From the sequence record KC801932: a stretch of DNA of 64,000 nucleotides; one strand, 5' to 3'. This DNA comes from Escherichia phage Lw1. The first letter of the stretch is position 1. The number at the start of each line of letters is the position of its first letter. A program made the position numbers and the translations under genes. Of this stretch, positions 988-59,083 are shown one piece after another. Under the pieces are notes generated by a model. The model was not told the DNA's origin and did not search any database. It saw only the letters and a program-made list of their open reading frames with translations.

Positions 988-1004
988 ACCCCTTCGGGGG
1001 TTTT
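987..1004 (+). terminator. GC hairpin plus T-run (aaccccTTCGggggtttt)
   Basis: Perfect short stem followed by TTTT immediately upstream of gp47 RBS. Confidence 0.45.
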
Positions 1005-1013
1005 GAGGTATAT

Positions 1014-2033: not shown

Positions 2034-2301
2034 ACGATATGAAAAATATTTTGGGGAAACCCCATTGTATTTGCCACTGCTTACGATGTTCGGTATTGAC
2101 CATATTGTAAGCGAAAGCGATGATAGTGTATGTTTGACGTTCGTTAAAGGGAACTGGCATTCTTCAAGAACGTTTTCTATCCTGATGCTTGATGCGTTAG
2201 ACGATGATACATTGTCATATGCTCTTGAGGTCGAACTCGTTAATATGGTTGCAGAACTTAGTGAAGGTATTTTAAGTGAAACTAAACTTCAAAAAAATTA
2301 A
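2026..2301 (+). CDS. Hypothetical small protein (approx 91 aa) between 47 and 46
   Basis: ORF bridging 47 stop and 46 start; likely GTG start at 2026 preceded by GGAGG; start uncertain. Confidence 0.3.
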   Translation: MHKRYEKYFGETPLYLPLLTMFGIDHIVSESDDSVCLTFVKGNWHSSRTFSILMLDALDDDTLSYALEVELVNMVAELSEGILSETKLQKN

Positions 2302-3967: not shown

Positions 3968-4664
3968 ACTTACAGTTGTCAAAATGCCATCGTTTCATAT
4001 TGGTGGCATCACCAACTTTAGCGCAATGGGGGCAAGTTAATTGCTCCCTTTTCTTTTGTATTTTTCTGTCTGGGTTCTTGGTACAATATGGAATATGACT
4101 GTTCAAGTAATGCACTGTCGATTCTGTACCACAATGAGGACAAGAACCGCGCTCCGATACTACGTTTCTGTTTTTATGTGCTCGCATGACTCCTGCAAAT
4201 GCATTCACTTTCCCTTCATTGCCTGGCTTGTTCTTGCAGTTGTCGAAGTGCCAGCGGTTCATATTACCTACTAAGCCGGACGTATTGCAATGAGGACACG
4301 TAACCCTGTTCTGTTGAAGTTTGGCCTGTCTCATGCGTAAGCGTGTCTCTTCGCTGAACTCTTTTTGTTTCTGGGCTTCAAGTGCTTTTTCTTTTAACCA
4401 TCCATAGCGGCGGTTTGCTGTACGCGCAGACGATCGAGAAGTGCCGACTGTAAGCATGTTAGCAGCATAAATTAGTTTATGGTTGCCTGGATACATCTTA
4501 ACCAATAGCAGATGTGCTATGAAATGTTGACGTGCTGACAGTTCAACCAGATTTTCGGGATCGTCCGATCCTCCCATACATTTTGGAACGATGTGGTGTT
4601 TCTCTTTGTACTCTGCATCCGTTCCGGCAGTCATGAGTTGTTCGTAAATCTTATGATAATTCAT
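3954..4664 (-). CDS. Free-standing HNH homing endonuclease (Mob-like)
   Basis: HHIVPKCMGGSDDPENLVELSARQHFIAH HNH motif; C-terminal repeated CPHC/HFDNC zinc-binding modules; overlaps gp46 3' end on opposite strand. Confidence 0.8.
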   Translation of the reverse strand: MNYHKIYEQLMTAGTDAEYKEKHHIVPKCMGGSDDPENLVELSARQHFIAHLLLVKMYPGNHKLIYAANMLTVGTSRSSARTANRRYGWLKEKALEAQKQKEFSEETRLRMRQAKLQQNRVTCPHCNTSGLVGNMNRWHFDNCKNKPGNEGKVNAFAGVMRAHKNRNVVSERGSCPHCGTESTVHYLNSHIPYCTKNPDRKIQKKREQLTCPHCAKVGDATNMKRWHFDNCKFKTS

Positions 4665-4712
4665 GATGATAAACCCTGTTTGATAGTCCGTTAGATACCC
4701 CTATTTAGGAAC

Positions 4713-4910
4713 ATGATTATGTTAGAACGAGAATTTGAATTGATGACCTCTCCAGAAGCGGAGAGGTTTTATCTTCATAACGAACTGTTGGAAGAAAAAC
4801 ACGTTGTCACTATGGAAGATGTCAAAGAAGCCTTTAAAGACAATCAGTTAGAGCTAACGCGAATACTGAATAATAAATCGTCTATGTGGTTTCTCGAAAA
4901 AATCTATTGA
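4713..4910 (+). CDS. Hypothetical protein (65 aa)
   Basis: Small acidic ORF; followed by hairpin at 4937. Confidence 0.3.
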   Translation: MIMLEREFELMTSPEAERFYLHNELLEEKHVVTMEDVKEAFKDNQLELTRILNNKSSMWFLEKIY

Positions 4911-4936
4911 CATCAGAACATAAATACCTTAAAGTT

Positions 4937-4969
4937 GCCCGTGTACTGAGTTGCACGGGCTTTTATTTT
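4937..4969 (+). terminator. Hairpin plus T-run (gcccgtgtactgagttgcacgggc ttttatttt)
   Basis: Inverted repeat followed by T-rich tract, immediately upstream of RBS GAGGAA and ATG 4982. Confidence 0.45.
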
Positions 4970-4981
4970 GAGGAACGGAAA

Positions 4982-6679
4982 ATGATTAACGAAAAAATGA
5001 CACACCGCGAAGCGTTGGAAATCTTAGGGGCCACGGGTACTGAATCCAAAGCTGAAATGTCCAAACTCTTCAAACGTGCTTCTCTGCGTAATCACCCCGA
5101 TCGTGGTGGTAGCACAGAACTCATGCAAAAAATTAACCAGGCATATGACGTAGTAACGAGAACAAACAGTTCTGGTGAAACTATGATGGATATGCGAGCG
5201 CGTCACGCAGCGAATAAAAAAGCGTGGGAAGAAAAACTGGATGCGTATTTTGTTGTTGCTAAGAACTATTTCAGCACGAAATTTAACGCACAGGAATTCG
5301 CTGAATACTTCACCAAATACACCGGACAGCCGACGACCTTCACACAGGAAGTCAAGAAAGATACAATTTCCGTATCTGCTGTGTTCCGTTTCACTTCTGG
5401 TGATGCTCACTTTGATTTCGCTTTCTACTGCAAGCCAGAAGAAGGTAAAGGTTTGATGTCTCCTGATGCAAGCGCATTGGGTAGTGTTTCTGTCAATACT
5501 CTGGTACTGGTTGGAACCAAAAAACATAAAATGGCAAGCCGTGAATATCAATGGGGCAAAAACCCAGATAAGATCACACCGGAAAGCCTGTTCCCGTCCA
5601 AGAAACTTGCATCAATTTTCAGCCCGACACAAAAGAACCTCAAGTTCAAACGTGCTGACTATATGACTTCTTTCCGCAAGCACTTAGACGCAGAAATCAG
5701 CGGCAATGATATCTATGTTCCTGTAGGCGACCTGAAAGTTCGTTTCTATCGTCATGTAATGATGCGTAAAGGTGCGTATGTGTTTAGTGCGGTATACGAC
5801 CCAGCGGTAAGTAAATTCCGTTCTGCTGCAAACCTTCGCGGAACTATGTTCGAAGACGAAGACGGCGCATGTTTGGATATGATTATCGACACTTTCAAAG
5901 AAATGCAGAAAGCAAAACCGAACGTTAACGGTATTGTCAGTATCATTGACAAGATGAACGCAGAATTCGCAGCGGGACACCGTTCAGCATCTTTCGTCAA
6001 ACGTATGGCACAGCAAGCAGCAGCACCGAAGCCGGAAGAAAAGCCGAAACGCACTGTTAACCGTATCAGCAAAGATGATTATTTCAACGCATTGAAACAA
6101 GCGGGTGCAACATTCCGTAGCAACTACGGTGAGTTTGATAACGGCGCTGGATTGACTTTCCACTTCAAGCGCGAGATCAGCAACCGTAAAGGCTTCTGGA
6201 GTTTCAGCAGTTTTAATTTCATGCACTCCGGTCAACGTCATGTTGAATGGTTGAAAGATATCGACATTGACGAAGACAGCAAAGGTGCAAGTATCGGTCT
6301 GATGGTTGATACTCTGAAACAGTTGCGTGGTGTTGCTGATTGGTATACTGCAAGAAAGATCCTGGAAGCGATGCGCGATAACTTCAAAGCTGGTAAGTTC
6401 TCCGCACCACACGTTAAGAAAGAAGCCGAACAGAAACGCACTGAGGCGCAAGCTAAGGACGAGTTAGGCGCACAGCCTACCAAACCCCATGAAGCGAAGA
6501 AAGAAGCCCCAGCAGTTGATAAGGCTCACGAGGCGCAAATGGCGAAAGAGAAAGCACAGATGAATGCAACTATTCGTTCTATGCTCTCCGCTCTGGTTAA
6601 AGCTGGACGCAAAGACACGCCGGAAGAAATTAAAAAAGCAGTTGATGAAGCAATCGCTCTTTGGCGCTTGAAACACTAA
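4982..6679 (+). CDS. J-domain (DnaJ-like) protein, 565 aa, with Lys/Glu/Ala-rich C-terminal tail
   Basis: N-terminal J domain with HPD motif (LRNHPDRGGS...INQAYDVV); start placed at ATG 4982 with GAGGAA RBS rather than the upstream GTG of the ORF track. Confidence 0.7.
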   Translation: MINEKMTHREALEILGATGTESKAEMSKLFKRASLRNHPDRGGSTELMQKINQAYDVVTRTNSSGETMMDMRARHAANKKAWEEKLDAYFVVAKNYFSTKFNAQEFAEYFTKYTGQPTTFTQEVKKDTISVSAVFRFTSGDAHFDFAFYCKPEEGKGLMSPDASALGSVSVNTLVLVGTKKHKMASREYQWGKNPDKITPESLFPSKKLASIFSPTQKNLKFKRADYMTSFRKHLDAEISGNDIYVPVGDLKVRFYRHVMMRKGAYVFSAVYDPAVSKFRSAANLRGTMFEDEDGACLDMIIDTFKEMQKAKPNVNGIVSIIDKMNAEFAAGHRSASFVKRMAQQAAAPKPEEKPKRTVNRISKDDYFNALKQAGATFRSNYGEFDNGAGLTFHFKREISNRKGFWSFSSFNFMHSGQRHVEWLKDIDIDEDSKGASIGLMVDTLKQLRGVADWYTARKILEAMRDNFKAGKFSAPHVKKEAEQKRTEAQAKDELGAQPTKPHEAKKEAPAVDKAHEAQMAKEKAQMNATIRSMLSALVKAGRKDTPEEIKKAVDEAIALWRLKH

Positions 6680-6739
6680 CTGATTGTGTTATACTGGGAA
6701 CTGTTGAAAAGCAGTTCCCTTTTTTATGAGGAAAATACT

Positions 6740-7066
6740 ATGAGTTGTCCAACATGGGCGCATTTTGAAAATTTGAAAGAAGGTACGCAGAAACGCGTGT
6801 ATATCAATTTGGGTTGGATTCCACCAACTGATTTTGAATTAGCCGTAATAATGGTTAATGCCAGCAAAGAGATCAGCGAAACTTTCGAATGGGAAAGACT
6901 TACTTTGCCTGTTCATCCAGGGTTCTTTATGGCCCGTGAAAAGTTCGAAGAAATGAAACGAGCGGTAGAATGTATCAATGGGTTGACTACGCCATCTTTA
7001 CGTATGCACTACCGGAACCTATTCACCCTGAAAAAAGCATGGGAAATCGCGGAGGTTGAATTATGA
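6740..7066 (+). CDS. Hypothetical protein
   Basis: ORF with GAGGAA RBS before ATG 6740; no recognised motif. Confidence 0.35.
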   Translation: MSCPTWAHFENLKEGTQKRVYINLGWIPPTDFELAVIMVNASKEISETFEWERLTLPVHPGFFMAREKFEEMKRAVECINGLTTPSLRMHYRNLFTLKKAWEIAEVEL

Positions 7067-7344
7067 TTATTCAGGTATCCGTACAGGGTAATACTCTGAC
7101 CGTAACCTATTCAATTATGACCGCTATGGCTGCATGTCGTGATCATGTGTTGACAAAGCCGCCTGTGACTGAAATTCTGGAAATTGATATATGGAACGGT
7201 GGTGTAATTTGTGGATCTTATGGATTTACACCACTGGAAGAAAATTTAAACACAATGGAAGAATGGTTATATGGGAAATTGTACACCAATGAAACTACCA
7301 AAGCATACGACGCTGTTAACTCGCGAAAAACTACATTCTGTTGA
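7063..7344 (+). CDS. Hypothetical protein (93 aa)
   Basis: ATGA-coupled ORF upstream of frd. Confidence 0.3.
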   Translation: MIIQVSVQGNTLTVTYSIMTAMAACRDHVLTKPPVTEILEIDIWNGGVICGSYGFTPLEENLNTMEEWLYGKLYTNETTKAYDAVNSRKTTFC

Positions 7345-7546
7345 ATGGAGTCCGTTAGACGTGATGATCTTTGATATCGAATCACGGATCATTAATGCTC
7401 GTATGAACGGATTAGGAATCTTTTCTGTTGAATTCGAAAAGATTCGCGGTTATAATGCTGACTGTAAAAACAAGTTGCGCGTCATGGTGGAAGCAATGGG
7501 CTACATCGTGGATATTGAAGACAATAAAATGTGGATCGGATTATGA
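7271..7546 (+). CDS. Hypothetical protein, start uncertain
   Basis: ORF overlapping previous one in another frame; ends with ATGA overlap into frd. Confidence 0.25.
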   Translation: MGNCTPMKLPKHTTLLTREKLHSVEWSPLDVMIFDIESRIINARMNGLGIFSVEFEKIRGYNADCKNKLRVMVEAMGYIVDIEDNKMWIGL

Positions 7547-8124
7547 GCAAAGTAAAAGCAGTTTTCGCAGTCGGTAATGACGCATACGAAGAAGATTTTG
7601 CGTTTGGCTACCAGCAGGGTTTACCGTGGGGGCATTGCAAAGAAGATTTGCAGAAATTCAAAGCAGAAACTGCAAATAGCGTCCTGATCATGGGTGCGAA
7701 CACTTTTACTTCTCTGCCTGGTAAATTGTCAGGGCGAGTACATTGCGTTATGTCTGCATCCGGTCAACGTCTGGTAACGAAGAACGGAAATACCGCTGAT
7801 TACATCATCCACTGTGGCGGGTTGTCTGCTGCAATCGACGTGATGAAAGCAACGCATCCAGATAGTGATGTGTGTATCATTGGTGGTAAGGGGTTGCTTC
7901 TGGAAGCAATCAATAATACACTGGTTGATGAATTAGTCATAACTCACGTTTATGGACATCGTGTGTATAATGCACCAGCGTTTAAACGTGATGTCTCGTT
8001 TAGCGTCAAAGAATTCTATGATGCAGTCTTGAAGTATGGATATTGTGATTTTGAAACTATCCATATTCACGACAACGAACGCGTTGCAAAACTTGTGATC
8101 GACCGACATACGAAAAAGGCATGA
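7543..8124 (+). CDS. frd: Dihydrofolate reductase
   Basis: 193 aa; DHFR-like motifs (VFAVG, LPW, IMGANTF, IIGG); gene order frd-td as in T4. Confidence 0.88.
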   Translation: MSKVKAVFAVGNDAYEEDFAFGYQQGLPWGHCKEDLQKFKAETANSVLIMGANTFTSLPGKLSGRVHCVMSASGQRLVTKNGNTADYIIHCGGLSAAIDVMKATHPDSDVCIIGGKGLLLEAINNTLVDELVITHVYGHRVYNAPAFKRDVSFSVKEFYDAVLKYGYCDFETIHIHDNERVAKLVIDRHTKKA

Positions 8125-8125
8125 A

Positions 8126-8992
8126 ATGAAACAGTATCTTGATATTATAAACACAGTTCTAACACACGGTGTAGAATCAACGGATCGTACTGGTGTTGGT
8201 ACACTTCGCATCTTCGGAATGCAAACCCGTTGGAACCTCGCAGAAGGTTTCCCAGCAACAACCAGCAAACAACTATTCTTCAAACCGTGTAAGCATGAAT
8301 TGCAATGGTTCCTGTCCGGTTCTACTAACGTTGATGAACTACGTGAAATGACCTGGGGAATAGGAAGCGATAAACGCACTATTTGGGACGATAACTACGA
8401 AAATCAGGCTAAAGCACTGGGATACTCTCATGGTTATCTGGGGCCAATCTACGGCTACCAGTGGCGTTCGTTTGGTGGCAATGGTGAATTCGATGGTAAT
8501 TTCCCTGGTGTTGACCAGATCGCTCGAATCATCAAAGAACTGAAAGAGAAACCAGACGATCGCGGGATCATCGTTTCCGCATGGAATCCGGTTGATCTTG
8601 ATGCAATGGCTTTGCGTCCGTGTCACTGTTTCTTCCAGTTCGTCGTAATCAACGGTAAACTGTCTCTACAGTGGTATCAGCGTTCGGTTGATGTCTTCTT
8701 AGGGTTGCCGTTCAATATAGCCTCATACGCTCTCCTGACGCATATTATCGCTGATATTTGCGGGTATGAAGTAGGCGATCTGGTTTGGACTGGTGGTGAT
8801 GTTCATATCTACAAAAATGCAATTGAACAAGCGAAAGAACTATTGAAGCCGGAACGCACACCGTTACCGCTTCCGACTCTGGTAATGCCGAAGGTAAATA
8901 GCTTACTTGATTTGGATCAAGAATTCTTTGACTCCATCCATTTGAAAGACTATAATCACCACGGCTCGCTAAAAGCAGCTATGGCAGTATAA
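8126..8992 (+). CDS. td: Thymidylate synthase, uninterrupted
   Basis: 288 aa; conserved ThyA blocks (DRTGVGT, IVSAWNP, LRPCHCFFQF, QRSVDVFLGLPFNIASYALLTHI); single continuous ORF. Confidence 0.93.
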   Translation: MKQYLDIINTVLTHGVESTDRTGVGTLRIFGMQTRWNLAEGFPATTSKQLFFKPCKHELQWFLSGSTNVDELREMTWGIGSDKRTIWDDNYENQAKALGYSHGYLGPIYGYQWRSFGGNGEFDGNFPGVDQIARIIKELKEKPDDRGIIVSAWNPVDLDAMALRPCHCFFQFVVINGKLSLQWYQRSVDVFLGLPFNIASYALLTHIIADICGYEVGDLVWTGGDVHIYKNAIEQAKELLKPERTPLPLPTLVMPKVNSLLDLDQEFFDSIHLKDYNHHGSLKAAMAV

Positions 8993-8997
8993 ACAAA

Positions 8998-9018
8998 AGG
9001 GGCTACGGCCCCTTTCTT
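8998..9018 (+). terminator. GC hairpin after td (aggggc tac ggcccct)
   Basis: Perfect stem-loop followed by T-rich sequence. Confidence 0.45.
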
Positions 9019-9032
9019 AACAAGGTAAGATA

Positions 9033-11282
9033 ATGAGTGATATTAAAACAGTAGTAAAATCCTCTGGTGTAAGTCAACCATTCGACAAAGAAAAACTGTT
9101 TAAAGTCCTGAACTGGGCCAGTGTTGGAAAGAATATTGATGTTAACGCATTCCTTGAAAGTGTCGTTGACCTGCTTCGTGACGGTATGACTACCAAACAG
9201 ATCCAGGGCGTAGCTATCAAGTATGCAGCGGATCGCATTTCAGTAAAAGAACCTGACTGGCAGTATGTAGCGGCTAACCTCGAAATGTTCGCCCTTCGTA
9301 AAACCGTTTACGGGCAATTTGACCCGATCCCATTCTACGAACACATCACTAAGCTGGTTGAGGCTGGAAAATACGACAAAGAGATCCTAACCAAATGGAC
9401 TAAATCTGATATCGAATATTTCGAAGAGAACATTAAGCACGATAAAGATTTCGAGTTCTCTTACGCTGGTGTTCAGCAGTTGATCGGGAAATATCTGTTG
9501 CAGGATCGCACAAACGGTGACATCTACGAAACCCCGCAATACGCTTTCATGCTGATTGCTATGTGTCTGCATCAGGACGAACCGCGAACCCTGAGCGCAT
9601 TTAATCATGTGGTTGATTTCTACAACGCAATTTCGGATCGTAAGCTGTCGTTACCTACGCCTATTATGGCTGGTGTGCGTACTCCTACGCGTCAGTTTTC
9701 CAGTTGCGTAGTGATTGAATCAGGTGATTCACTGGGTTCTCTGAATGCTGTAACCTCTGCGATCGTGAAGTATATTTCACAACGTGCTGGTATCGGTGTA
9801 AACGCCGGACATATTCGCGCGATGGGTTCTAAAATCCGTGGTGGTGAAGCAGTTCATACAGGCGTGATCCCGTTCTGGAAACATATTCAGACAGCGGTTA
9901 AATCCTGTTCACAAGGTGGTGTTCGTGGTGGTGCTGCAACGTTGTATTATCCGATCTGGCATTTGGAAGTTGAAAACCTGCTGGTTCTGAAAAACAACAA
10001 AGGTGTTGAAAACAACCGTATCCGTCACCTGGATTATGGCGTACAGCTTAACGATTTGATGTATAAACGTTTGATGAATAACGATTACATCACTCTGTTC
10101 AGCCCTGATGTTGCTAACGATCGTCTGTATGATGCGTTCTATCAAGCGGATCAGACTGAATTCGAAGAACTGTATACCAGCCTTGAAAAAGACCCGACTG
10201 TACGCAAGAAACGTATTAAAGCGGTAGATCTGTTCCAGTTGCTTGCACAGGAACGCGCACAGACTGGACGCAAATATATTTTCAACAGTCATCACGTCAA
10301 TCAGCAGGGTAGTTTCTCTGTTCCGGTTCGTATGTCGAACCTTTGCTGTGAAATTGCGATCCCTACAAGTCCTCTGGATGACGATGATAAACTGGCTGGC
10401 GAAATTGGACTGTGTACGCTTATGGCTATCGTTCTCGATAATGCCGATATAAGCGAATTTCCGGCCCTTACGCGCATTGCAGTACGCGCACTGGATAACT
10501 TGCTGGATTACCAGAATTATCCTGTTGCAGCGGCACTGAAAGCTAAACAGCGTCGTTCTCTGGGTGTTGGTATCACCAACTATGCTTCGTGGCTGGCAAG
10601 TAACTATTGCGACTACTCAGAAGCATACGCCGGAAACGTTCATGAACTGATGGAAGCGTTTCAATATAACTTGTTGGTTGCCTCTATGGAACTGGCAAAA
10701 GAACGCGGCGCGTGTGGACTGTTCCACGAAACAAAATATTCACAGGGACTGTTACCGATCGATTGGTACTGCAAGAACGTTGATGAACTCGCATCACCTG
10801 TGTATAACTGCGACTGGGAATGGTTGCGTGGTGAAATCAAAAAATACGGCTTGCGTAACTCAACGCTTTCTGCTTTAATGCCATGTGAGAGTAGTTCTCA
10901 AGTAAGTAACTCCACAAACGGTATTGAACCGCCTCGCGGCCCTGTGAGTGTGAAATCTTCGAAGGAAGGTTCATTTAACCAGGTAGTTCCGAACCATAAT
11001 GACCAGATTGATTTCTATGATTATCTCTGGACAATGGCTAAACGCGGTAACAAAGGTTATCTGTCTCATGTTGCTGTTATGCAGAAGTTTGTTGACCAGG
11101 CTATCTCTGCAAACACCGACTATGATCCGGCTAACTATGCTGATGGTAAAGTTCCGACTGAGGAAATCTTAGATGACCTCCTGTACGCGAACTATTTCGG
11201 TGTTAAAACACTGTATTACCACAACACCCGCGATGGTGCTGGTGAAGATGAAGCGGAAGATTGCGAAGGTTGCAAGATTTGA
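9033..11282 (+). CDS. nrdA: Ribonucleotide reductase class Ia large subunit
   Basis: 749 aa; ATP-cone N-terminus; catalytic-site blocks (SSCVVIESGDS, NLCCEI, C-terminal redox cysteines). Confidence 0.93.
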   Translation: MSDIKTVVKSSGVSQPFDKEKLFKVLNWASVGKNIDVNAFLESVVDLLRDGMTTKQIQGVAIKYAADRISVKEPDWQYVAANLEMFALRKTVYGQFDPIPFYEHITKLVEAGKYDKEILTKWTKSDIEYFEENIKHDKDFEFSYAGVQQLIGKYLLQDRTNGDIYETPQYAFMLIAMCLHQDEPRTLSAFNHVVDFYNAISDRKLSLPTPIMAGVRTPTRQFSSCVVIESGDSLGSLNAVTSAIVKYISQRAGIGVNAGHIRAMGSKIRGGEAVHTGVIPFWKHIQTAVKSCSQGGVRGGAATLYYPIWHLEVENLLVLKNNKGVENNRIRHLDYGVQLNDLMYKRLMNNDYITLFSPDVANDRLYDAFYQADQTEFEELYTSLEKDPTVRKKRIKAVDLFQLLAQERAQTGRKYIFNSHHVNQQGSFSVPVRMSNLCCEIAIPTSPLDDDDKLAGEIGLCTLMAIVLDNADISEFPALTRIAVRALDNLLDYQNYPVAAALKAKQRRSLGVGITNYASWLASNYCDYSEAYAGNVHELMEAFQYNLLVASMELAKERGACGLFHETKYSQGLLPIDWYCKNVDELASPVYNCDWEWLRGEIKKYGLRNSTLSALMPCESSSQVSNSTNGIEPPRGPVSVKSSKEGSFNQVVPNHNDQIDFYDYLWTMAKRGNKGYLSHVAVMQKFVDQAISANTDYDPANYADGKVPTEEILDDLLYANYFGVKTLYYHNTRDGAGEDEAEDCEGCKI

Positions 11283-34090: not shown

Positions 34091-34558
34091 TTAGCCGTCA
34101 TAACCGCCACCGCATTTAACATCACCTTCAATGAACAGTTCGCGGTTGTCTCTCAAAAGATTGTATTTCTTTTCGAGTTCCGGCCCGAATGCGTCAGCGT
34201 CTTCATAATAGCTATAATTATAACAACCGCATTCATCATCCCATTCAGGATCATCACCGCATTCGTTGAAATGTACCACTTTGATATCATCAACGCCCAG
34301 TTCTTTCATTTTATTCCAGATATACCGGATGTCAACGCTATGATAACTGAATGCTTCAAGGGTGATACTATCACCATCAATTTGAGGAATACCCCATTTA
34401 GAACGTTGGTCATCGGTAATGATATCCAGTAAAGATTCTACGTTTTCATGTCCGTAAATCTTCGCGACCTCTTCCTCTTTACCAGGACGAACAAGCCCGA
34501 TCCCGATAATAAAGCTACTGCTTGAACTGTTACTTACAAAACCAGAACGGATCTTCAT
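34091..34558 (-). CDS. Hypothetical protein, MKIRSGFVSNSSSSSF family member A (155 aa)
   Basis: N-terminal 17 aa identical to ORF 37968-38480; C-terminus Cys/acidic (ECGDDPEWDDECGC). Confidence 0.5.
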   Translation of the reverse strand: MKIRSGFVSNSSSSSFIIGIGLVRPGKEEEVAKIYGHENVESLLDIITDDQRSKWGIPQIDGDSITLEAFSYHSVDIRYIWNKMKELGVDDIKVVHFNECGDDPEWDDECGCYNYSYYEDADAFGPELEKKYNLLRDNRELFIEGDVKCGGGYDG

Positions 34559-34746
34559 CGTCTTACCTCGTATTTCGCGTTCTCAGCGATTTTTTCTTGA
34601 TAGATGTTATATGACATTACCAGAGGCGCAATCGCCACGATAAGCCCTATAAAGCACACAGAGAACTCACGTTTATTGAAAGCCAGGAACGCAATTGCGC
34701 TCCCGACTACAAACACACCTAATGCCAGTAAGAAGAATAGCGTCAT
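34555..34746 (-). CDS. Hypothetical small membrane protein (63 aa)
   Basis: Two hydrophobic helices; ATGA-coupled on both sides. Confidence 0.4.
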   Translation of the reverse strand: MTLFFLLALGVFVVGSAIAFLAFNKREFSVCFIGLIVAIAPLVMSYNIYQEKIAENAKYEVRR

Positions 34747-35360
34747 TTCGGCAACGTGTCCATTTTGCGTGATTTTTCCAACAGGGTTTTGATTACCGTA
34801 TCCATCGCCTGTTCTGTATCACCATCATGATAGATGATCGCGGTTTGATGCAAACCTTTCACCAAACGATTAATAATGTACGCCATTTCGGTCGGTAACA
34901 GTTTACCCGTTTCGTTGAATTTTTCAAACAGTTTGAACAGTTCTTCGTTATTCCCTTTCTTACTGAAATTGAAATTGTGCATACCAGACAGAAGACCATC
35001 CAGATACAGAACTGTTTTGTTATCAGAGCGGAGGTGTCCACCGATTTTGTAGTAGTTGCTGAAAACGTATGGCGCTTCACGAACATCATTGATTTCTAAA
35101 CCAGCATCATCGATATTGCCTACGTGGGAGAAGAAATCCGCATCGTTATCGAACAGGTTGATCGCGCCTTTCTTGTACGGGAAGCCAGCCAGATTAATGA
35201 CCCCCTTTTCATACGCATTATCGTTATCAACGACAACGTATTCAGGAAGCATAGGGGCATACGGTTTGTTTTTGTCGTGGTTTTCGCGATACGCTAAAGG
35301 TTCAGCCAGATAGAGGATATCGCCTTGTTTGACTTCATCCCAAAAGATATTACGTGACAT
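34743..35360 (-). CDS. Hypothetical protein (approx 205 aa)
   Basis: Start placed at ATG 35360 (MSRNIF) with GAGGAA RBS downstream of hairpin. Confidence 0.45.
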   Translation of the reverse strand: MSRNIFWDEVKQGDILYLAEPLAYRENHDKNKPYAPMLPEYVVVDNDNAYEKGVINLAGFPYKKGAINLFDNDADFFSHVGNIDDAGLEINDVREAPYVFSNYYKIGGHLRSDNKTVLYLDGLLSGMHNFNFSKKGNNEELFKLFEKFNETGKLLPTEMAYIINRLVKGLHQTAIIYHDGDTEQAMDTVIKTLLEKSRKMDTLPK

Positions 35361-35400
35361 ATTAAATTCCTCAATATGCCCCCTTTCGGGGGCTATTTCA

Positions 35401-37620
35401 TTACAGTTTAACTTCTTTTTCTTCCAGAACGATTTCGCAATCGAATGTTGCATCTTTCCAGAACTCATGCGGGATGATTTTGTCTGCTTTAACCGATACT
35501 TTGGTTTCTTCAAAATCCAGATCCGCAAACCAGGCGTGGCCTACAACGATACCGTACATTACACGGCTCAGGCGCTTGTTCAGTGCGCGTACTTCGTTGA
35601 TGGTTGCCTTTGTTTCTTTATCAAGGTACTCGATTACCTTATCCTTGTCAAGCGCTGCGAGTTCAGCTTTAACAGCATCGTAAGCCCACAGGATGATCAG
35701 GTCGCCGTTGTTCAGTTTCTTCTTACCTTCGGCACGTTTCGCAACAGTTGCCGCTACAGCAGGAAGGGAGGAAACACCCTTGATTTTCAGATTCAGTTCT
35801 TTCGACATATAAACATCAGTCGAATCGGTACGGGTTACTTTCGGGGAGAATCCATAATCACGAATACCCTGTTCAGATAACCATTCACCAGCGGCTTCAC
35901 CGTATTTCTGTTTCAGACCTTCGGCATTACGTAAACCGATCGCGTCGTCACGGAAGAACTTCATCACCTTCTGACGACCTTTCAGGATTTCCAGACGGAT
36001 AGAGTCGTTTACATACTCTTTACCGGAGATCCCGCGAGTCATCGCACGGTTAACCAGAGGCAGACTTGTAAAGTCAACCAGTACCGACATGCGGTCTTCA
36101 CCGATTTTTGCCAGCGGCTTGATAGTCAAACCAGAAGCGCGAAGGTTTTTCAGTGTCGGAATATCGGTTTCCAGTGGCAGAACCTTAACGTTTACGATCC
36201 CATCTTTAACGATGGTGAAGTTACGCACCTGCTTAGTTTCGATTTTTTCCGGCAGTCCCAGTTCTTTCTGTTTGCTTTCTGGGATAGTTACGTAACCTTG
36301 CAGATCCGTGTTAATGGAAATGTTAGGACGTGAACTGTTGCCGACCAGATGTTTAACCGATACTTTGGTTGTTGTCTGGGTAAATTTCGGTGTCCATATT
36401 TCGTGCGTTACCATTTGTGCGGCTAATGCTTTGCGTTCTTCCGGTGTTTTCGCATTTGCGATCTGTTCTGACAGTTGATCCAGAGTATCATCTTCTTTCT
36501 GTACTGTCTGACGGCCTGTACGGTTGTACGCCCAGTGTTCAGAAGACAGGTCGATCACTGTGTCAGTTTCTGCCAGCAGTTCGAGAGCATCAACCAGAGT
36601 GAATGCGTTTTCGTCTGGAACCATGTTGTAATCAACACCTTCAATCAGACGTTTACCCGCATCAACTACCGCTTCCGCGATCAGGTCTTTGGCGTTGGAA
36701 TAATCCTGCTTAGTAAAGCAGTTATCGTAAGCCTTAATCAGACGAACGTCACCGACTTTTTTCAGCACTTTCCATGCCAGATCAGGGTTCATGGTATGAA
36801 GTGCATGATACAGAACCACGTACAGAACCTGTTCACCTTCCATCGTAGCCGGATCAAATCCGTCGATATCGTTGATTGCGTTTTCACCCAGCGCCCAGAT
36901 GTTTTTGATGTGTTCTGGAACCAGTACAACACCATTTGCAGCGTTCAGGACATACACGCGCCCTTCGTCCAGATAGATCGCATGGGTAGCGTCACCGACC
37001 TTGACTTCAACACGCGGTGATGTTTGCGCGGTGATGATTTCAGCAAATGCTGGCTCGTATGCGTCGAAACCTTCAACGAATTTATGCAATGCGTTGGTTG
37101 CTTCTGCCATTTTTTCCAGCAGCGGACGGTTTACATAATAACCGTATTCCAAGAACGCGATGCTGTTAAAAGTCAGCGGGAGAACCGCACACGCTTTCAG
37201 GATGTCATCGGTACGCCAGCAGTTATCATAACCATCCGTAAGGAAGATCAGGCTGTTCAGATTGCCGTTTTCGGATTGCAGATCAGTTGCGATTTCCGCA
37301 GCCAGGTTCAGAGGTTCAACGAAACCAGTACAACCAGTGGGTTTCAGATAGCGGTCGATCGCGGTGCAGATGTTAGTCAGATCGGATACGTTGCTAACCT
37401 TCTCACCACGGAACACAGTACCGTAATCGCCTTTGCTGGAGAAGTACAGAATCGAAACTGTATCATCCTGTTTAACCAGACTCGCCAGGTTTGCTTTCAG
37501 ATGTTTACGGATTTTCGGGAGTTCGTTATACATAGAACCGGAAACGTCACACACGAAAACGTGGTTGGTCGGAGTCGGCTTCGATACTGCGTTTTTGAAT
37601 TCGATATTTGTAATTGACAT
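35401..37620 (-). CDS. von Willebrand factor A (vWA) domain protein, 739 aa
   Basis: N-terminal vWA fold with MIDAS-like DVSGS and later LTDGYD; large uncharacterised C-terminal region. Confidence 0.65.
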   Translation of the reverse strand: MSITNIEFKNAVSKPTPTNHVFVCDVSGSMYNELPKIRKHLKANLASLVKQDDTVSILYFSSKGDYGTVFRGEKVSNVSDLTNICTAIDRYLKPTGCTGFVEPLNLAAEIATDLQSENGNLNSLIFLTDGYDNCWRTDDILKACAVLPLTFNSIAFLEYGYYVNRPLLEKMAEATNALHKFVEGFDAYEPAFAEIITAQTSPRVEVKVGDATHAIYLDEGRVYVLNAANGVVLVPEHIKNIWALGENAINDIDGFDPATMEGEQVLYVVLYHALHTMNPDLAWKVLKKVGDVRLIKAYDNCFTKQDYSNAKDLIAEAVVDAGKRLIEGVDYNMVPDENAFTLVDALELLAETDTVIDLSSEHWAYNRTGRQTVQKEDDTLDQLSEQIANAKTPEERKALAAQMVTHEIWTPKFTQTTTKVSVKHLVGNSSRPNISINTDLQGYVTIPESKQKELGLPEKIETKQVRNFTIVKDGIVNVKVLPLETDIPTLKNLRASGLTIKPLAKIGEDRMSVLVDFTSLPLVNRAMTRGISGKEYVNDSIRLEILKGRQKVMKFFRDDAIGLRNAEGLKQKYGEAAGEWLSEQGIRDYGFSPKVTRTDSTDVYMSKELNLKIKGVSSLPAVAATVAKRAEGKKKLNNGDLIILWAYDAVKAELAALDKDKVIEYLDKETKATINEVRALNKRLSRVMYGIVVGHAWFADLDFEETKVSVKADKIIPHEFWKDATFDCEIVLEEKEVKL

Positions 37621-37629
37621 TTAAATTTC

Positions 37630-37968
37630 TCAGTATTTGGTTGTTTTATGTGCGTTTAAAATGCTTTGGATTTTTTCGGAAATCGTTTGCTGGTCTGGTT
37701 CACATCCCAACTTACCGCCAATCACCTTATAAAAATCTTCAACAGAGCTTACGTTAAAATCCGACATATCGAAACCTAAAGAATACATATGTGGATTTGT
37801 AAATTTGTAAACACCTACATCATACTCGTTAAGGTCGAAACGTTCAAGATATTTCTTCAAAGAGAATAAATCGAACGGTAGCGGAAGATGTTGTTCAATC
37901 GATACAGGTTCCCCCAGCTTATGCGCTTTTAGCGTTGCCGCTTTCGTGTACGTCATTTCTTCTTTCAT
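37630..37968 (-). CDS. Hypothetical protein (112 aa)
   Basis: ORF immediately upstream of vWA gene. Confidence 0.4.
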   Translation of the reverse strand: MKEEMTYTKAATLKAHKLGEPVSIEQHLPLPFDLFSLKKYLERFDLNEYDVGVYKFTNPHMYSLGFDMSDFNVSSVEDFYKVIGGKLGCEPDQQTISEKIQSILNAHKTTKY

Positions 37969-38480
37969 CAGTGGTGACTCTTTGATGTATGTTCAAGGTT
38001 ACGGAAGATGTCGCCGTGTTCCATTTGTGTTCCAACAGGTCCGCATTCATCCGAGTAAGTAAACTCGTAGATAAACACACCGTTCTGATTACCGTACTTC
38101 ATGTTGTACTCTTCATACAACCACATCTTGATCAGAGCGTCTTTCTCTTCGGTTTCTAAATCGTACCAATCCCGACCATCATATGCAAGCGCAATTTGAG
38201 GATTTGAACGATAACGGGTTTCCGCGCTATCTTCGGTTTCCCAATCATAACGCTTATCGTCATAAAACGATTCAAAGCTGTTACCCATATGACCGCCCAA
38301 ATCACGGTGTACATGGTTGATCACTTCTTCGGATGTCAGCGACGGGGTATAGTAACCGCACGTAGGATGACAGTCACCCATCATTTCGCGCAGGTTGTCG
38401 ATATTAGTCGGATCTTTCGGGAACCGGACAATGAAACTACTTGATGAGCTATTGCTCACAAAACCAGAACGGATTTTCAT
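37968..38480 (-). CDS. Hypothetical protein, MKIRSGFVSNSSSSSF family member B (170 aa)
   Basis: Same N-terminus as ORF 34091-34558 with divergent C-terminus. Confidence 0.5.
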   Translation of the reverse strand: MKIRSGFVSNSSSSSFIVRFPKDPTNIDNLREMMGDCHPTCGYYTPSLTSEEVINHVHRDLGGHMGNSFESFYDDKRYDWETEDSAETRYRSNPQIALAYDGRDWYDLETEEKDALIKMWLYEEYNMKYGNQNGVFIYEFTYSDECGPVGTQMEHGDIFRNLEHTSKSHH

Positions 38481-39981: not shown

Positions 39982-40236
39982 TTAAAAAAGATGCGTTAAA
40001 TGTCCTGCATTGCTGGGGTATTCGACGTAATCACCACGGAAGATGTTCAAATCTTTATCAAATTTAAACCCATGTCCTTGAACATCTTCATGACGAGATA
40101 CATAAGATACTCCATACTTTTCAAGGTCTTCCATATACATTTCGGTGATTCTCTTCGCTTTATCCAATCCGCGTCCCTCAAATCGAGAACGTCGATAATT
40201 CGCAAGAAGAAACGCATATAATTCTTCGTATGTCAT
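39982..40236 (-). CDS. Hypothetical protein (84 aa)
   Basis: ORF ATGA-coupled into methyltransferase gene. Confidence 0.4.
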   Translation of the reverse strand: MTYEELYAFLLANYRRSRFEGRGLDKAKRITEMYMEDLEKYGVSYVSRHEDVQGHGFKFDKDLNIFRGDYVEYPSNAGHLTHLF

Positions 40237-41144
40237 TTCAATACCTTTCTGATTTGTTTCGCTATGGCTTCGATCACGGGTATTGAAACTGAATTTCCCG
40301 CTTGACGATATGCCTGTTTTTTACTATCCGGTATGATAAATGAATCAGGGAATCCCTGCAAACGAAAACACTCACGGGGAGTAAGTCTTCTGGGGTTCTT
40401 TCCTTCCTGCAACACCAGACATTGAACGCCGTCCTTGTAATACTGCTGGGTTATCGTCCCAGTGTGCGTAGAATCGCTTGTGACGGCCTGATAACCAAAC
40501 CCCTTACCATTCGCCTTGTTTCGTTCCTTACGCTCTCTAAAGCCTTTCCACGCGTTATCTGATAGGGTGTATGAATCATCAGCATCTTCGAGGATATCGC
40601 CCACTCTCGTAGGGGTACGCGGAGGAACAGGAAACGAAAAGAATACATCATCCAGGAAGCAAACAATAAACACACGTTCACGTCTTTGTGGTAGTCCGAA
40701 ATCTTTTGTATTCAGTCGTTGATAGAATACGTTATATCCTTCGGCCTCCAGAAGCCCGTAAATCGTTTTAAACGTCTTCCCCTTGTCATGGGTTAGTAGT
40801 TCAGGCACGTTCTCAAAGAACAGCACACGGGGCTTTTTAGCGCGTATGATGCGGAGTATTTCAAAGAACACAGTACCGCGAACATCATCGAACCCCAGTT
40901 TTAATCCTGCTTTACTGAATGCCTGACACGGGAACCCAGCCAACAGGATATCGTGATCAGGTACTTCGGTTTCTTTTATCTGGAACAGATCTCCCTGTAG
41001 GTTATCATTGCCCCAGTTTTCGATATATGTTTGCTGTGCGAACTTGTCGATTTCAGACGTTAAAAGGCATTCGACACCGCCGAACGCCTTATCAAATCCT
41101 AATCGAACCCCGCCCACACCAGCACAGAGGTCAATTATTTTCAT
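40233..41144 (-). CDS. DNA (cytosine-5)-methyltransferase
   Basis: Canonical C5-MTase motifs: I DLCAGVGG, IV GFPCQAFS, VI ENV, VIII QRRERVF, C-terminal X. Confidence 0.85.
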   Translation of the reverse strand: MKIIDLCAGVGGVRLGFDKAFGGVECLLTSEIDKFAQQTYIENWGNDNLQGDLFQIKETEVPDHDILLAGFPCQAFSKAGLKLGFDDVRGTVFFEILRIIRAKKPRVLFFENVPELLTHDKGKTFKTIYGLLEAEGYNVFYQRLNTKDFGLPQRRERVFIVCFLDDVFFSFPVPPRTPTRVGDILEDADDSYTLSDNAWKGFRERKERNKANGKGFGYQAVTSDSTHTGTITQQYYKDGVQCLVLQEGKNPRRLTPRECFRLQGFPDSFIIPDSKKQAYRQAGNSVSIPVIEAIAKQIRKVLK

Positions 41145-41685: not shown

Positions 41686-41921
41686 TCCGTTTCGATACCG
41701 TATTTGTATGCGTCAATCCCCAGAGGGGTGATCAACAGACACATATCAGTATTTTCGTTTGGCGACTTAAACGCCGCAGTTGCGTAACCTTTTTCAATCA
41801 GGGCATTACGCCCTGATTTACTGGGTACGTCATCGAAATCCAATGTTAACACCTGTGATGCATATCTGTAAAGTTTATACAGCACGTCAATTTCAGCACC
41901 GGATAATTTCGGGAATGTCAT
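41676..41921 (-). CDS. Hypothetical protein (81 aa)
   Basis: Coupled ORF. Confidence 0.35.
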   Translation of the reverse strand: MTFPKLSGAEIDVLYKLYRYASQVLTLDFDDVPSKSGRNALIEKGYATAAFKSPNENTDMCLLITPLGIDAYKYGIETEWH

Positions 41922-42916
41922 TTGTAGTACCCCACAACGTGATCGCGATAAACGCGTTCGATAAAGTCGTTCCAGAACTCGCGATCAACCTCTTTCGGAT
42001 AATTAGAGACTGCTGCAAGGCGTTCGACTTCACCCATGATTTCTTCCAGCTTTTCCTGGACAAAAGTGAAAGGTTTCGTTCCGGCTTTAACTTCTTTTAA
42101 AAGCTGGCTCTCTTCCAGAGGATATACGATATCACCATGTTTGTAAATGCTGATAAGCTGTAAGCCTCCGCGCAATGCGTGAGAAAGTGCTTTCCAGTCG
42201 ATCCCGTTGTTGGCTTCTGCCTGTCTTGCTCGTTCACCATATTCGTCCCAGAGTTTATACACTGACTTTTTCATTTCAGCTACGGTGATCGTAGACTGGA
42301 ATTTGCGCCCCAGCACTTCATAGAAGTCCTGACAACCGGATTTCAGGGTTTTGTCTGTAGTGAATCGACAGAACTCATTGGTCGGGAATGTGTGAGAGAC
42401 TTCACCAACTTTGATGTGATGTGTTGCGTCACCCAGATTAGACGGCATACGAACAATGCGGCTATTTGGTGTATCCTGCAACACATCGTATACTTCACGC
42501 AGTGCAGCCAGGCGAGAACCTTTAACGCCATACTTCGCCGCTTGCTTACGAACATAACCAAACAGGCCAGTTAGTTCCGTAGTGTAGAAACGTGAACGGT
42601 TAGCGCGGATATACTGCCAGATTTCGGAGTTAGCGATCATCTTACTATCATCAGCATGAAGCATATCGAGCGCTACGGTATCACCATCACACGCAAGGCT
42701 AATGAACTTAGGCAGACTATACAACTGACGGTCGATGTCGTCTACGGTGTTCTTAGAGCTTTTATCGCCCGTGCTCGTGTCGATAGTCTTCGGGGCTTTA
42801 CCCAGTAAGATATCGCGTGGATGCGGGAGAAAGATCCCTTTATAATCTTTGTCGCTTGTCGGGGTGTTCAGTCCATACAGGTGAGAACCGAACACAGTTT
42901 CCATTACAATTTTCAT
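41918..42916 (-). CDS. Nucleotidyltransferase-fold protein (Pol-beta superfamily), 332 aa
   Basis: N-terminal GS...SDxD signature (FGSHLYGLNTPTSDKDYKGIF). Confidence 0.5.
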   Translation of the reverse strand: MKIVMETVFGSHLYGLNTPTSDKDYKGIFLPHPRDILLGKAPKTIDTSTGDKSSKNTVDDIDRQLYSLPKFISLACDGDTVALDMLHADDSKMIANSEIWQYIRANRSRFYTTELTGLFGYVRKQAAKYGVKGSRLAALREVYDVLQDTPNSRIVRMPSNLGDATHHIKVGEVSHTFPTNEFCRFTTDKTLKSGCQDFYEVLGRKFQSTITVAEMKKSVYKLWDEYGERARQAEANNGIDWKALSHALRGGLQLISIYKHGDIVYPLEESQLLKEVKAGTKPFTFVQEKLEEIMGEVERLAAVSNYPKEVDREFWNDFIERVYRDHVVGYYK

Positions 42917-56880: not shown

Positions 56881-57191
56881 TTACTTTTGATTCTGTTGCA
56901 TTCTTCCGCACACTCTTTTTCCGCAAGGATTTTGCGAACAACCGCGTTTCTGATTTTCCAGAGATAATCGATCATCTGCATATCTTCGGGAGTGTGATAA
57001 CCTTTCATATCGCATTCAAATACGATAGCATCGCGTTCTGACATTGCCATTATCGCGGTAGCCGAACAAATGGTCATCCCACTATATTTTTCAATCAACG
57101 ATTCCAGTGTACGCTTTTCTGCCGGAATGTCAACAGTTATCGGAACAGGACGGATTCTTGTAGTCGAATCGTCGAAGGATTGATAAATCAT
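56865..57191 (-). CDS. Hypothetical protein (108 aa)
   Basis: ORF directly downstream of radical-SAM-like gene. Confidence 0.35.
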   Translation of the reverse strand: MIYQSFDDSTTRIRPVPITVDIPAEKRTLESLIEKYSGMTICSATAIMAMSERDAIVFECDMKGYHTPEDMQMIDYLWKIRNAVVRKILAEKECAEECNRIKSKWGVL

Positions 57192-58342
57192 TTTAACTCC
57201 ACTGCATAAACATCGGTTTCGGGGGCTTTGTGTACGCGCATATCTTTACCACATACCGCATAAGCCGGACAGTTGCGACAACCGTTATGATCCGTGTTGC
57301 CTGTCAGTTCTTTACGGAACTGTTTTGTTTTCGGGTGTTCCCAGATATCTTTGATAAAATCATCGGCTTCAAGGACATTCAAACCTTCACCCCAGCCACC
57401 TTCAACCCAACGTTCGGTAAACGAGCAAGGGAAGAATTCGCCTTTTTCGTTGATGTAAGAGCTAAACATCGTCGCTTCACAATCTTCCGCATACTGCTTG
57501 TATTGTTCGAAGTTCGGGTGTCCCTCCATCGCTTCAACGAAAGCTGGGGCTGAACAGCTATCGAATCCAAATCCTACACCAGAATCAAGGCAGTATTCAA
57601 CAAGTTTTTTGTATTGTTCGCGGGTGACTGTATCCCAGTTCTTACCACGTCCCTTTTGTTTCAGACCCAGGAACACGATCGCGTTGACTTGTTTCAGGCG
57701 CGGATCATTACGCACAGCATCAACAACGGTAAACGCATCATCATAGGTCTTTGAGCTAACCATGAAATGTAGGTTGATTTGCTGTTGTCCTGCTTCTGCC
57801 AGGTTTGCGACGGAATCGAAAGCAACATCGAAGCCAGCATGTTTATAAACCGATACTGCAACAGCCCCAGCAACCGCCGCTAAACGCGCTGCAACGTCTT
57901 TTGATACATCAGCAATGGTAAGGTTCGGTACAATGCCTTTAGAACGCGCATAGGCCATCATATCGAACATATCAGGGTTTGTTTGTCCCTGTGCATCAGC
58001 ACCGAGTGCGCATTGGGTTAACCAGGGCATTTTATCAATGATGGATTTGAAAGAAGCAAGATCCATATTGTAGCCGTTCGGGTTATTGGACTTGTAACAG
58101 AAACCACACAGCTTACCAGCGGGGCCATTACATTTAGTTGTGATCTCGATATCGAGGATAAAAGGAAAATGACTATAAATAGGATCGTCAGCAGGAGTTT
58201 TGCCCCAAGTCATCATATGACCTGTTTTCATATCAAAATTAAAATTAACCTCTTCGGAACGATAGATTTTCTTTCCTTTCGCTTCCAGTAGAAGTCCAAC
58301 AGGCGTTTTGATATGTTTGGCGTTTACTTTAACGTGTCTCAT
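57188..58342 (-). CDS. Radical-SAM-like Fe-S enzyme (approx 384 aa), non-canonical Cys spacing
   Basis: TTKCNGPAGKLCGFCY (Cx7Cx2C) near N-terminus, further Cys cluster CRNCPAYAVC near C-terminus; start at ATG 58342 with AGGT RBS. Confidence 0.45.
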   Translation of the reverse strand: MRHVKVNAKHIKTPVGLLLEAKGKKIYRSEEVNFNFDMKTGHMMTWGKTPADDPIYSHFPFILDIEITTKCNGPAGKLCGFCYKSNNPNGYNMDLASFKSIIDKMPWLTQCALGADAQGQTNPDMFDMMAYARSKGIVPNLTIADVSKDVAARLAAVAGAVAVSVYKHAGFDVAFDSVANLAEAGQQQINLHFMVSSKTYDDAFTVVDAVRNDPRLKQVNAIVFLGLKQKGRGKNWDTVTREQYKKLVEYCLDSGVGFGFDSCSAPAFVEAMEGHPNFEQYKQYAEDCEATMFSSYINEKGEFFPCSFTERWVEGGWGEGLNVLEADDFIKDIWEHPKTKQFRKELTGNTDHNGCRNCPAYAVCGKDMRVHKAPETDVYAVELK

Positions 58343-58354
58343 AGGAACCTCATA

Positions 58355-59083
58355 ATGTATTACGTTTACAGAATCACAAATGTTATAGAGAACAAGCACT
58401 ATTATGGATCAAGAAAACCTAAAAAGTCAATGCTTGCTTCCGACGATTTAGGGAAACACTATTTCAGTAGTTCCCGTGATAGTCATTTCATCCAAGATCA
58501 GAAGGAAAATCCAGGACACTACAAATATAAAGTAATCGTATCGGGGTTGTCAAGGGAAAAGGCGATGAAACTTGAGAAAAGGTTACACGAAATCTACAAG
58601 GTGGACACGAACCCACATTTTTATAACAAACACATACACAACAGCGTTGATTTTTCATGTACACCAGAAACAGGAAAGAAGATTTCACAAACACACCAGA
58701 AATATGCAGCAAAGAAAATTTCAGAATCACATAAAAGGCGATTCAAGGAAGGTATAGCATCACATAAAGGAGAGAACAACCCACGATACAACGATCATCG
58801 GTCTTATGAAGAGATACACGGAGAAGAAAAAGCGGAGACTATACGCAAAGCACAATCTGAATCAAGAAGAGGAAAAGGCAATTCCCGCGCGGTTACGTGG
58901 AAATTTACTTCCCCTAATGGAGAAGAATTTTTAGTTGAAGGAGAATGTAAAAAGTTTTGCAAAGACAGAAATATTTCCATGCGTAAACTGAAAACCTATC
59001 TGGGTGAAGTCATCACAACATGCGATAAACCCTACTATATCTCTAAGAATACCGTAGGATGGAAATTAGAAAAGATTATTTGA
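58355..59083 (+). CDS. Free-standing GIY-YIG homing endonuclease (Seg-like)
   Basis: N-terminal YYVYRITNVIENKHYYGSRK GIY-YIG motif from ATG 58355 (AGGAA RBS); basic C-terminal DNA-binding region; sole plus-strand gene in minus-strand island. Confidence 0.7.
   Translation: MYYVYRITNVIENKHYYGSRKPKKSMLASDDLGKHYFSSSRDSHFIQDQKENPGHYKYKVIVSGLSREKAMKLEKRLHEIYKVDTNPHFYNKHIHNSVDFSCTPETGKKISQTHQKYAAKKISESHKRRFKEGIASHKGENNPRYNDHRSYEEIHGEEKAETIRKAQSESRRGKGNSRAVTWKFTSPNGEEFLVEGECKKFCKDRNISMRKLKTYLGEVITTCDKPYYISKNTVGWKLEKII

Follow-up and report, generated by a model that had tools for sequence, protein, structure and literature searches.

Two small genes of Escherichia phage Lw1 (sequence record KC801932) encode proteins, here called A and B, that begin with the same 17 amino acids and then part company. 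This shared beginning, which we call the tag, is an invariant, strictly N-terminal and separable peptide borne by unrelated protein bodies, and in phages and bacteria alike the genes that carry it are tightly linked to one family of radical S-adenosylmethionine (SAM) enzymes of the SPASM type. On balance, the tag is probably a portable N-terminal mark of small polymorphic phage proteins that are clients, most likely substrates, of this radical SAM/SPASM-type enzyme. The 64,000 nucleotides of Lw1 DNA that were analysed, referred to throughout as the window, contain both tag genes and a copy of the enzyme gene:

37968..38480, minus strand: tag protein A, 170 amino acids (phrog_7397), N-terminal MKIRSGFVSNSSSSSFI followed by a family-specific body
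38430..38480, minus strand: the 51 nucleotides that encode the tag of A (codons 1-17)
34091..34558, minus strand: tag protein B, 155 amino acids, N-terminal MKIRSGFVSNSSSSSFI
34508..34558, minus strand: the 51 nucleotides that encode the tag of B (codons 1-17)
57188..58342, minus strand: radical SAM/SPASM-type enzyme, 384 amino acids from an ATG start (phrog_7293, no assigned function)

The initial annotation, made from the letters of this DNA alone, had reported an identical 17-residue start for A and B, encoded by DNA about 80% identical with mostly synonymous differences. Both proteins do begin with MKIRSGFVSNSSSSSFI, and their first 51 nucleotides differ by 10 mismatches (80.4% identity), 10 of 10 synonymous and none a replacement, with a TCA/AGC serine codon switch among them. 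Similarity ends at residue 18. The flanks are at background identity (35% over the 60 nucleotides upstream, 30% over the next 99), a profile-profile comparison aligns the A family with the B family over the first 22 residues only, and A and B are the only in-frame copies of the tag that a six-frame motif scan finds in the window. A BLASTP comparison of the two is uninformative because the serine run is filtered. Beyond the tag, the body of A ends in YSDExG...EHGDIFRN..H..SHH, and the B family features an acidic motif in mid-protein and an extreme C-terminal G(A/G)G(R/Y)(N/D)G. A recent local duplication, which the initial annotation had itself named as a refutation, or a gene conversion that left a functionless shared start has in its favour the position of the two copies, only 4 kb from one another and on one strand. 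Its probability is nevertheless negligible: it is excluded by the ten synonymous differences, of which the serine switch takes two steps, set against zero replacements, and by the occurrence of the same peptide on hundreds of proteins in unrelated phages and in bacteria.

Beyond the window the tag follows the consensus M-K-[IVT]-R-x-G-F-V-S-N-S-S-S-S-S-F-[IV]-[IV], of 17-18 residues (as a pattern, MK.R.GFVSNSSS[ST]SF). Its first 16-17 residues stay unchanged, while the remainder diverges, in homologues as distant as 35% identity for B and 30% for A. An exhaustive profile search gathered 767 representatives of the B family at 50% identity, nearly all of which start MK.R.GFVSNSSSSSFI, measure 140-170 amino acids and end G-A-G-R-N-G; a few proteins of other architecture match the B profile through the tag alone. 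Distant relatives of A and of B occur as 2-4 adjoining open reading frames (ORFs), each of which is initiated by the tag and continues as unrelated sequence. IMG/VR yielded at least 120 stretches that match the back-translated DNA pattern and the GTDB species representatives 93, and the loci fetched hold at least 295 distinct tag ORFs of about 60-300 amino acids, frequently in tandem arrays of up to 8 members. Across these 295, residues 1-2, 4 and 6-16 are conserved at 90-100%, conservation collapses past residue 18, and the tag methionine lies a median of 5 codons downstream of the preceding in-frame stop. Clustering of the bodies without their tags gives 105 sequence clusters, of which 77 have a single member. 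Pfam scans of 10 cluster representatives yielded nothing significant (9 without a match, one sub-threshold DUF4847), and the Zn-ribbon tag family has no match in cultured phages. The proposal of the initial annotation that A and B share a conserved N-terminal peptide under purifying selection is thus upheld: the selection is strong, the peptide is invariant in distant homologues and behaves as a separable module, and the motif search of phage databases that it recommended finds the tag on hundreds of otherwise unrelated proteins.

A constant beginning on diverse proteins might instead be read as the conserved structural or ligand-binding (for example phosphate-binding) core of a single hyper-divergent superfamily, formed by an N-terminal strand, a serine loop and a further strand. 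We regard this as unlikely. Tag-free profiles of the 12 largest tag families show no detectable similarity: of 66 pairs compared with hhalign, none reaches 90% probability, the best stands at 77% and the others fall below 20%. Bodies range in length from about 60 to 300 amino acids, no residue outside the tag is conserved across all families, no fold match was found in PDB or BFVD, and the radical SAM neighbour is left unexplained.

That neighbour is the most consistent feature of the tag's surroundings. The contexts of distant relatives of A and of distant relatives of B contain the same radical SAM/SPASM enzyme beside their 2-4 tag ORFs. In two unrelated contigs the enzymes so placed, of 358 and 338 amino acids, are 45% identical to one another and bear Radical_SAM/SPASM signatures, and the window encodes a 61%-identical homologue. 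When viral loci were seeded on the enzyme, 13 of 18 had 1-8 tag ORFs within 10 kb, and two of those outside this count are close relatives of the window in which the tag genes lie farther off. When they were seeded on the tag, the enzyme appeared in 45 of the 120 viral stretches (among the matches listed, with a mean length of 8 kb) and in 49 of the 93 genome stretches, against 2 of the 73 control loci, which were 22 kb long (Fisher p = 3e-9). Where both are present, in 107 loci, the nearest tag ORF lies a median of 57 nucleotides from the enzyme gene (within 100 nucleotides in 60 of them) and is co-oriented with it in all but one (106/107), so that, as in clusters for ribosomally synthesised and post-translationally modified peptides, genes with a common, putative recognition motif adjoin the enzyme gene. 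In a set of 50,697 cultured phage genomes, 171 records have the enzyme and 172 have protein B; their counts by genus are nearly the same, and the two occur in the same T4-like clade, which a search with a bacterial homologue of the enzyme recovers as well; in Vibrio phage D479 the enzyme has five tag ORFs upstream. Co-variation between tag residue 9 and the cysteine spacing of the enzyme is confounded by phylogeny.

The radical SAM assignment of the window enzyme draws on its PHROG and NCBIfam matches and on its cysteines. Its cluster motif is C-X7-C-X2-C (TTKCNGPAGKLCGFCY), the three cysteines of which are invariant in the alignment, and at the same position 33 related loci, most of its relatives, have the canonical CX3CX2C. 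Four further cysteines are invariant, and the window enzyme also has CX2CX5C, compared with the full CX2CX5CX3C of bacterial forms. Both the three cysteines expected of a radical SAM enzyme and the cysteine-rich C-terminus expected of a SPASM/twitch protein are therefore in place. Against TIGR04085 the window enzyme scores 25.1 bits, just below the cut-off of 27. Against PF13186 (SPASM) the phage enzyme of locus L002 scores 25.4 bits (cut-off 21.5) and a bacterial homologue 34.1 bits. Against PF04055 (Radical_SAM) the phage enzyme of locus L004 is weak (E = 0.0013, 19.3 bits against a cut-off of 29.5) and the bacterial homologue, which is 26-30% identical over 95% of its length, reaches 57.3 bits (E = 2.8e-15). 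The closest solved sequence relative of this homologue is SuiB (5v1q). By sequence, then, the cysteine motifs, the SPASM and TIGR04085 matches and the relation to SuiB place the enzyme among predicted peptide and protein maturases. A GIY-YIG-type ORF resembling a homing endonuclease (58313-59083, plus strand, 256 amino acids, YVYRITN...YYGS) abuts or overlaps the 5' end of the enzyme gene, which suggests mobile-element activity at that locus.

Phages related to T4 offer a precedent for a constant N-terminus with another purpose. The T4 internal proteins (IPI, IPII, IPIII and Alt) are polymorphic proteins with a capsid-targeting N-terminus, MKTYQEFIAE, that is removed by the prohead protease. 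The tag might likewise be an unmodified targeting or docking peptide, directing its bearers to the capsid or to a common host or phage partner, with the radical SAM enzyme merely another accessory gene of the region. The parallel is real in that both are short constant peptides at the N-termini of small, polymorphic, fast-evolving proteins of T4-like phages, here encoded in arrays. There is also a superficial resemblance to T4 (MK at positions 1-2, F at 7, I or V at 8), and the tag appears poorly ordered in a structural model. Yet residues 1-18 contain no glutamate in the 295 tag ORFs, and thus no (L/I)-x-E site for a prohead protease; tag proteins occur in bacterial STAND operons, which have no capsid; the genes belong to an early-type minus-strand block and not to the structural genes; and the adjacent, co-oriented enzyme is retained across 26-60% identity, far above what a shared region would lead one to expect. 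No proteome of virions from this group of phages turned up in our literature search; the one paper retrieved concerns Jiaodavirus, a different genus. The tag also differs from the T4 signal in its tie to a radical SAM enzyme and in its bacterial occurrences, and we give this alternative a small probability.

The reading of the tag as a client mark fits the habits of SPASM/twitch maturases such as SuiB, PqqE, MftC and the anaerobic sulfatase-maturating enzyme. They share with the enzyme described here the cluster motif, the C-terminal auxiliary-cluster cysteines and a gene directly beside small ORFs with a common, short and invariant motif. By analogy with such maturases and their genetically linked substrates, we infer that the tag is the recognition site and probably the modification site of the enzyme. 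The exposed tag would be bound by the enzyme and its Ser-rich loop modified, with serine oxidation, an F-x-S cyclophane-type carbon-carbon cross-link or epimerisation as candidate reactions at the level of a guess, and the modification would give tagged proteins a common property, be it activation, stabilisation or attachment. In an AlphaFold2 model of B, residues 1-14 are of low confidence and lie ahead of the first core strand, a prediction compatible with an exposed tail. The system departs from known maturases in several respects. Its proposed clients are unrelated proteins of 60-300 amino acids in arrays of up to 8, in place of short precursor peptides; what is conserved is a Ser-rich, Cys-free tag at the extreme N-terminus; most examples are found in virulent phages; and the enzyme family, phrog_7293, has no annotation and falls short of curated cut-offs. 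Folded, polymorphic, N-terminally tagged clients, phage-borne arrays and a link to NLR-like immunity are unusual among radical SAM maturases with linked clients. Two narrower analogies were rejected because their defining motifs are absent. The (C/S)-x-(P/A)-x-R motif of anaerobic sulfatase maturation does not occur in MK.R.GFVSNSSSSSF[IV][IV], and in amyloid signalling associated with NLR (nucleotide-binding leucine-rich repeat) proteins the comparison fails in that the STAND proteins concerned start with trypsin-like or restriction endonuclease (REase)/SMEK domains, not with the tag. The Ophion radical SAM defence system is unrelated.

Several observations weigh against the client reading. 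All the evidence is genomic association. The window enzyme lies 19 kb from A, B and the genes between them, albeit on the same strand, and the Pfam and NCBIfam scores of the phage enzyme fall below curated cut-offs. Three of the enzyme-seeded loci have no tag ORF in the available flank, and 75 of the 120 viral tag stretches (again among the matches listed) lack the enzyme within their short length. The tag has no cysteine and matches no known radical SAM substrate motif. In the model of B, the low confidence of the tag may merely reflect a shallow alignment of 16 sequences, and the tag is not wholly separable, because its residues 16-18 run on into the first beta-strand of the fold.

In bacteria the same pair of genes is embedded in what resembles an immune operon. 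The order is STAND protein, a protein X, tag protein, radical SAM enzyme, with overlapping stop and start codons. The operon recurs in Firmicutes and Campylobacterota, in isolate genomes of Acetatifactor muris, Veillonella parvula and Lachnobacterium bovis, and likewise in Sulfuricurvum metagenome-assembled genomes (MAGs) and on an Agrobacterium pAt plasmid; stretches from Verrucomicrobia MAGs contain the STAND and tag-protein genes. The STAND protein is an Avs2-like NTPase whose N-terminal effector varies, being a trypsin-like protease in some cases and a REase/SMEK domain in others, and the operon sometimes opens, ahead of the STAND gene, with a protein of the metallo-beta-lactamase fold (Avs1a/LmuA-like). 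Each operon has a single tag protein of 131-139 amino acids, starting MKIRNGFVTNSSSTSF or MKLKMDFVSNSSSTSF, and a radical SAM enzyme with the full SPASM motif. Protein X, conserved and 121-143 amino acids long, always precedes the tag protein in the loci concerned (L227, L243, L283, L282 and L320), and there the gene after the enzyme often encodes a 313-residue protein that has an integron-cassette-like domain; the loci examined contain no phage counterpart of X or of this protein.

A comparable arrangement has been published. The KpAvs2 system is a three-gene defence operon in which Avs2 needs Avap1, a radical SAM protein, and Avap2; the pocket of Avap1 is not viperin-like and the roles of Avap1 and Avap2 are reported as unknown (Bechon et al. 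2024, PMC11564622). The operons found here likewise join small proteins and a radical SAM enzyme to an Avs2-like STAND protein whose N-terminal effector varies. They differ from KpAvs2 in having two small genes, X and the tag protein, in place of one, and the phage version differs further in that it lacks the STAND protein and has multiplied the tag proteins. HMMER found no match to PF19902 (DUF6375-like, Avap2) in either the tag protein or X; the likeness to KpAvs2 is one of architecture. The bacterial context suggests that tag protein and enzyme form an accessory module of NLR-like immunity, which phages may have acquired and expanded, or may have donated. More speculatively, and in our estimation rather improbably, the phage enzyme and its growing set of tag proteins could serve in counter-defence or host takeover, as a descendant or an ancestor of the Avs2-type accessory module. 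A covalent modification of the Ser-rich tag by the enzyme would then enable many different phage effector bodies to dock on the bacterial tag protein or to imitate it, with STAND immunity silenced or redirected as a result, and such proteins would form a new class of phage effectors, matured post-translationally and addressed by their tag.

Between A and B lie a large protein with a von Willebrand factor type A (vWA) domain and three other ORFs, as the initial annotation had described:

35401..37620, minus strand: vWA protein, 739 amino acids (phrog_2426), Pfam VWA at residues 21-176
37630..37968, minus strand: 112-residue ORF (phrog_7677), only in close relatives
34743..35360, minus strand: 205-residue ORF (phrog_7309) with the ATG start MSRNIFW, only in close relatives
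34555..34746, minus strand: 63-residue hydrophobic ORF (phrog_7160), probably membrane, only in close relatives

The metal ion-dependent adhesion site (MIDAS) of the vWA domain is intact, with D25, S27, S29, T98 and D129 invariant. An AlphaFold2 model (predicted local distance difference test score, pLDDT, of 87) matches vWA plus beta-sandwich proteins over about 280 residues, among them a Catenulispora vWA protein (4fx5), ITIH1, archaeal ArnB and the Sec23/24 trunk. The window protein differs from these in belonging to a phage-specific family and in its C-terminal portion of about 460 residues, for which the fold search returned no informative match. Members of this family are spread widely among large virulent phages, with 502 cultured-phage records that include Ackermannviridae, Rhizobium phages and PBS1, in addition to jumbo-phage contigs. 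Some GenBank records (for example PP889458.1 and PQ657795.1) follow PHROG in calling the vWA protein a 'minor tail protein' and B a 'head-tail adaptor' (the label of PHROG 132); neither name is supported by Pfam, fold search or gene position. The vWA protein is not a known structural protein, one of the outcomes that the initial annotation had foreseen as a refutation. For A, B and the three small ORFs, nothing useful came of scans against Pfam, NCBIfam and PADLOC.

The initial annotation had gone on to treat A, B and the vWA protein as one module, and the tag could then mediate an interaction of A and B with the vWA/MIDAS protein that they bracket. The bracket is indeed conserved in the Pseudotevenvirus/Slopekvirus group, and in L055, a jumbo-phage contig, a distant, 26%-identical vWA protein lies 3 kb upstream of two tag ORFs and the enzyme. 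The wider distribution of the two does not bear the idea out. Of 80 vWA loci, 73 have no tag ORF within 10 kb and the other 7 are all close T4-like relatives; more than 200 tag loci have no vWA gene; Ackermannviridae possess the vWA protein and are not among the radical SAM matches, and the one locus examined there, in Salmonella phage moki, has no tag ORF. Nor does the tag contain an acidic residue of the kind normally coordinated by a MIDAS. On this distribution the vWA protein is rejected as the partner of the tag, and we consider an interaction of this kind very improbable. It shares a wider failing with the superfamily and the targeting peptide: all three are disfavoured because they leave unexplained a near-obligatory, co-oriented radical SAM neighbour in very distant genomes. 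The vWA protein is not demonstrably part of the tag system; in this phage lineage it is a passenger, together with the three small ORFs beside it, between two genes of the tag family, and the proximity in L055 is treated as coincidence or a weak lead.

The same L055 contig (IMGVR_UViG_3300037110_000087, 307 kb) also encodes, at 598-9513, a DHH-like phosphoesterase and an SbcC/Rad50-like ATPase. In the Ackermannviridae (phage moki, L146, 7998-10569) the gene directly downstream of the vWA homologue carries the annotation acyl carrier protein, which may hint at the function of the vWA protein. A perfect GC-rich hairpin (GCCCCCTTTCGGGGGC, 35378-35393), annotated as a terminator in Citrobacter phage Miller, occupies the 40-nucleotide gap between the vWA gene and the 205-residue ORF, where it may divide the genes from A to B between two transcription units.

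The window comes from a Pseudotevenvirus of RB43 type. A is 100% identical to Lw1_gp116, and a 4.9-kb region is 95% identical to the Citrobacter phages Miller and CfP1; gene order and content from A to B agree with the annotation of Miller. All of these genes lie on the minus strand, downstream of a gp25-like baseplate gene and among small genes annotated as hypothetical. A few kb upstream, the same minus-strand block includes a C5-cytosine DNA methyltransferase (40233-41144, minus strand) and an NrdC.11-like nucleotidyltransferase (41918-42916, minus strand). Lw1/RB43-like phage genes, those of near-identical A and B proteins with window-like spacing, occur on a contig of the Flagellimonas marina isolate assembly (L236, NZ_JBHSCL010000010.1), which is probably phage contamination of that assembly. 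In L108, L139 and related viral loci, ORFs that by eye, from their N-terminal sequences, resemble Macro-domain proteins, NAD synthase, nicotinamide phosphoribosyltransferase and isochorismatase/nicotinamidase recur near tag genes.

Full-text literature searches directed at the motif strings and at radical SAM systems in phages turned up no description of the tag or of its link to the enzyme, and no Pfam, NCBIfam or PADLOC model and no informative PHROG label was found for the tag. The pairing of tag and enzyme points to an undescribed protein-maturation system, and misleading locus labels ('head-tail adaptor', 'minor tail protein') are corrected along the way. If the tag is a radical SAM client signal, it would define a large unannotated superfamily, of at least 767 B-family clusters and hundreds of other tag proteins, and with it a new phage-encoded protein-maturation chemistry that would extend from T4-like phages used in Klebsiella and Enterobacter therapy to many uncultured large phages. 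It would also offer a concrete way to test what the radical SAM accessory genes, so far unexplained, do in Avs2-type NLR-like immunity, and would suggest that phages and their hosts have exchanged that accessory module.

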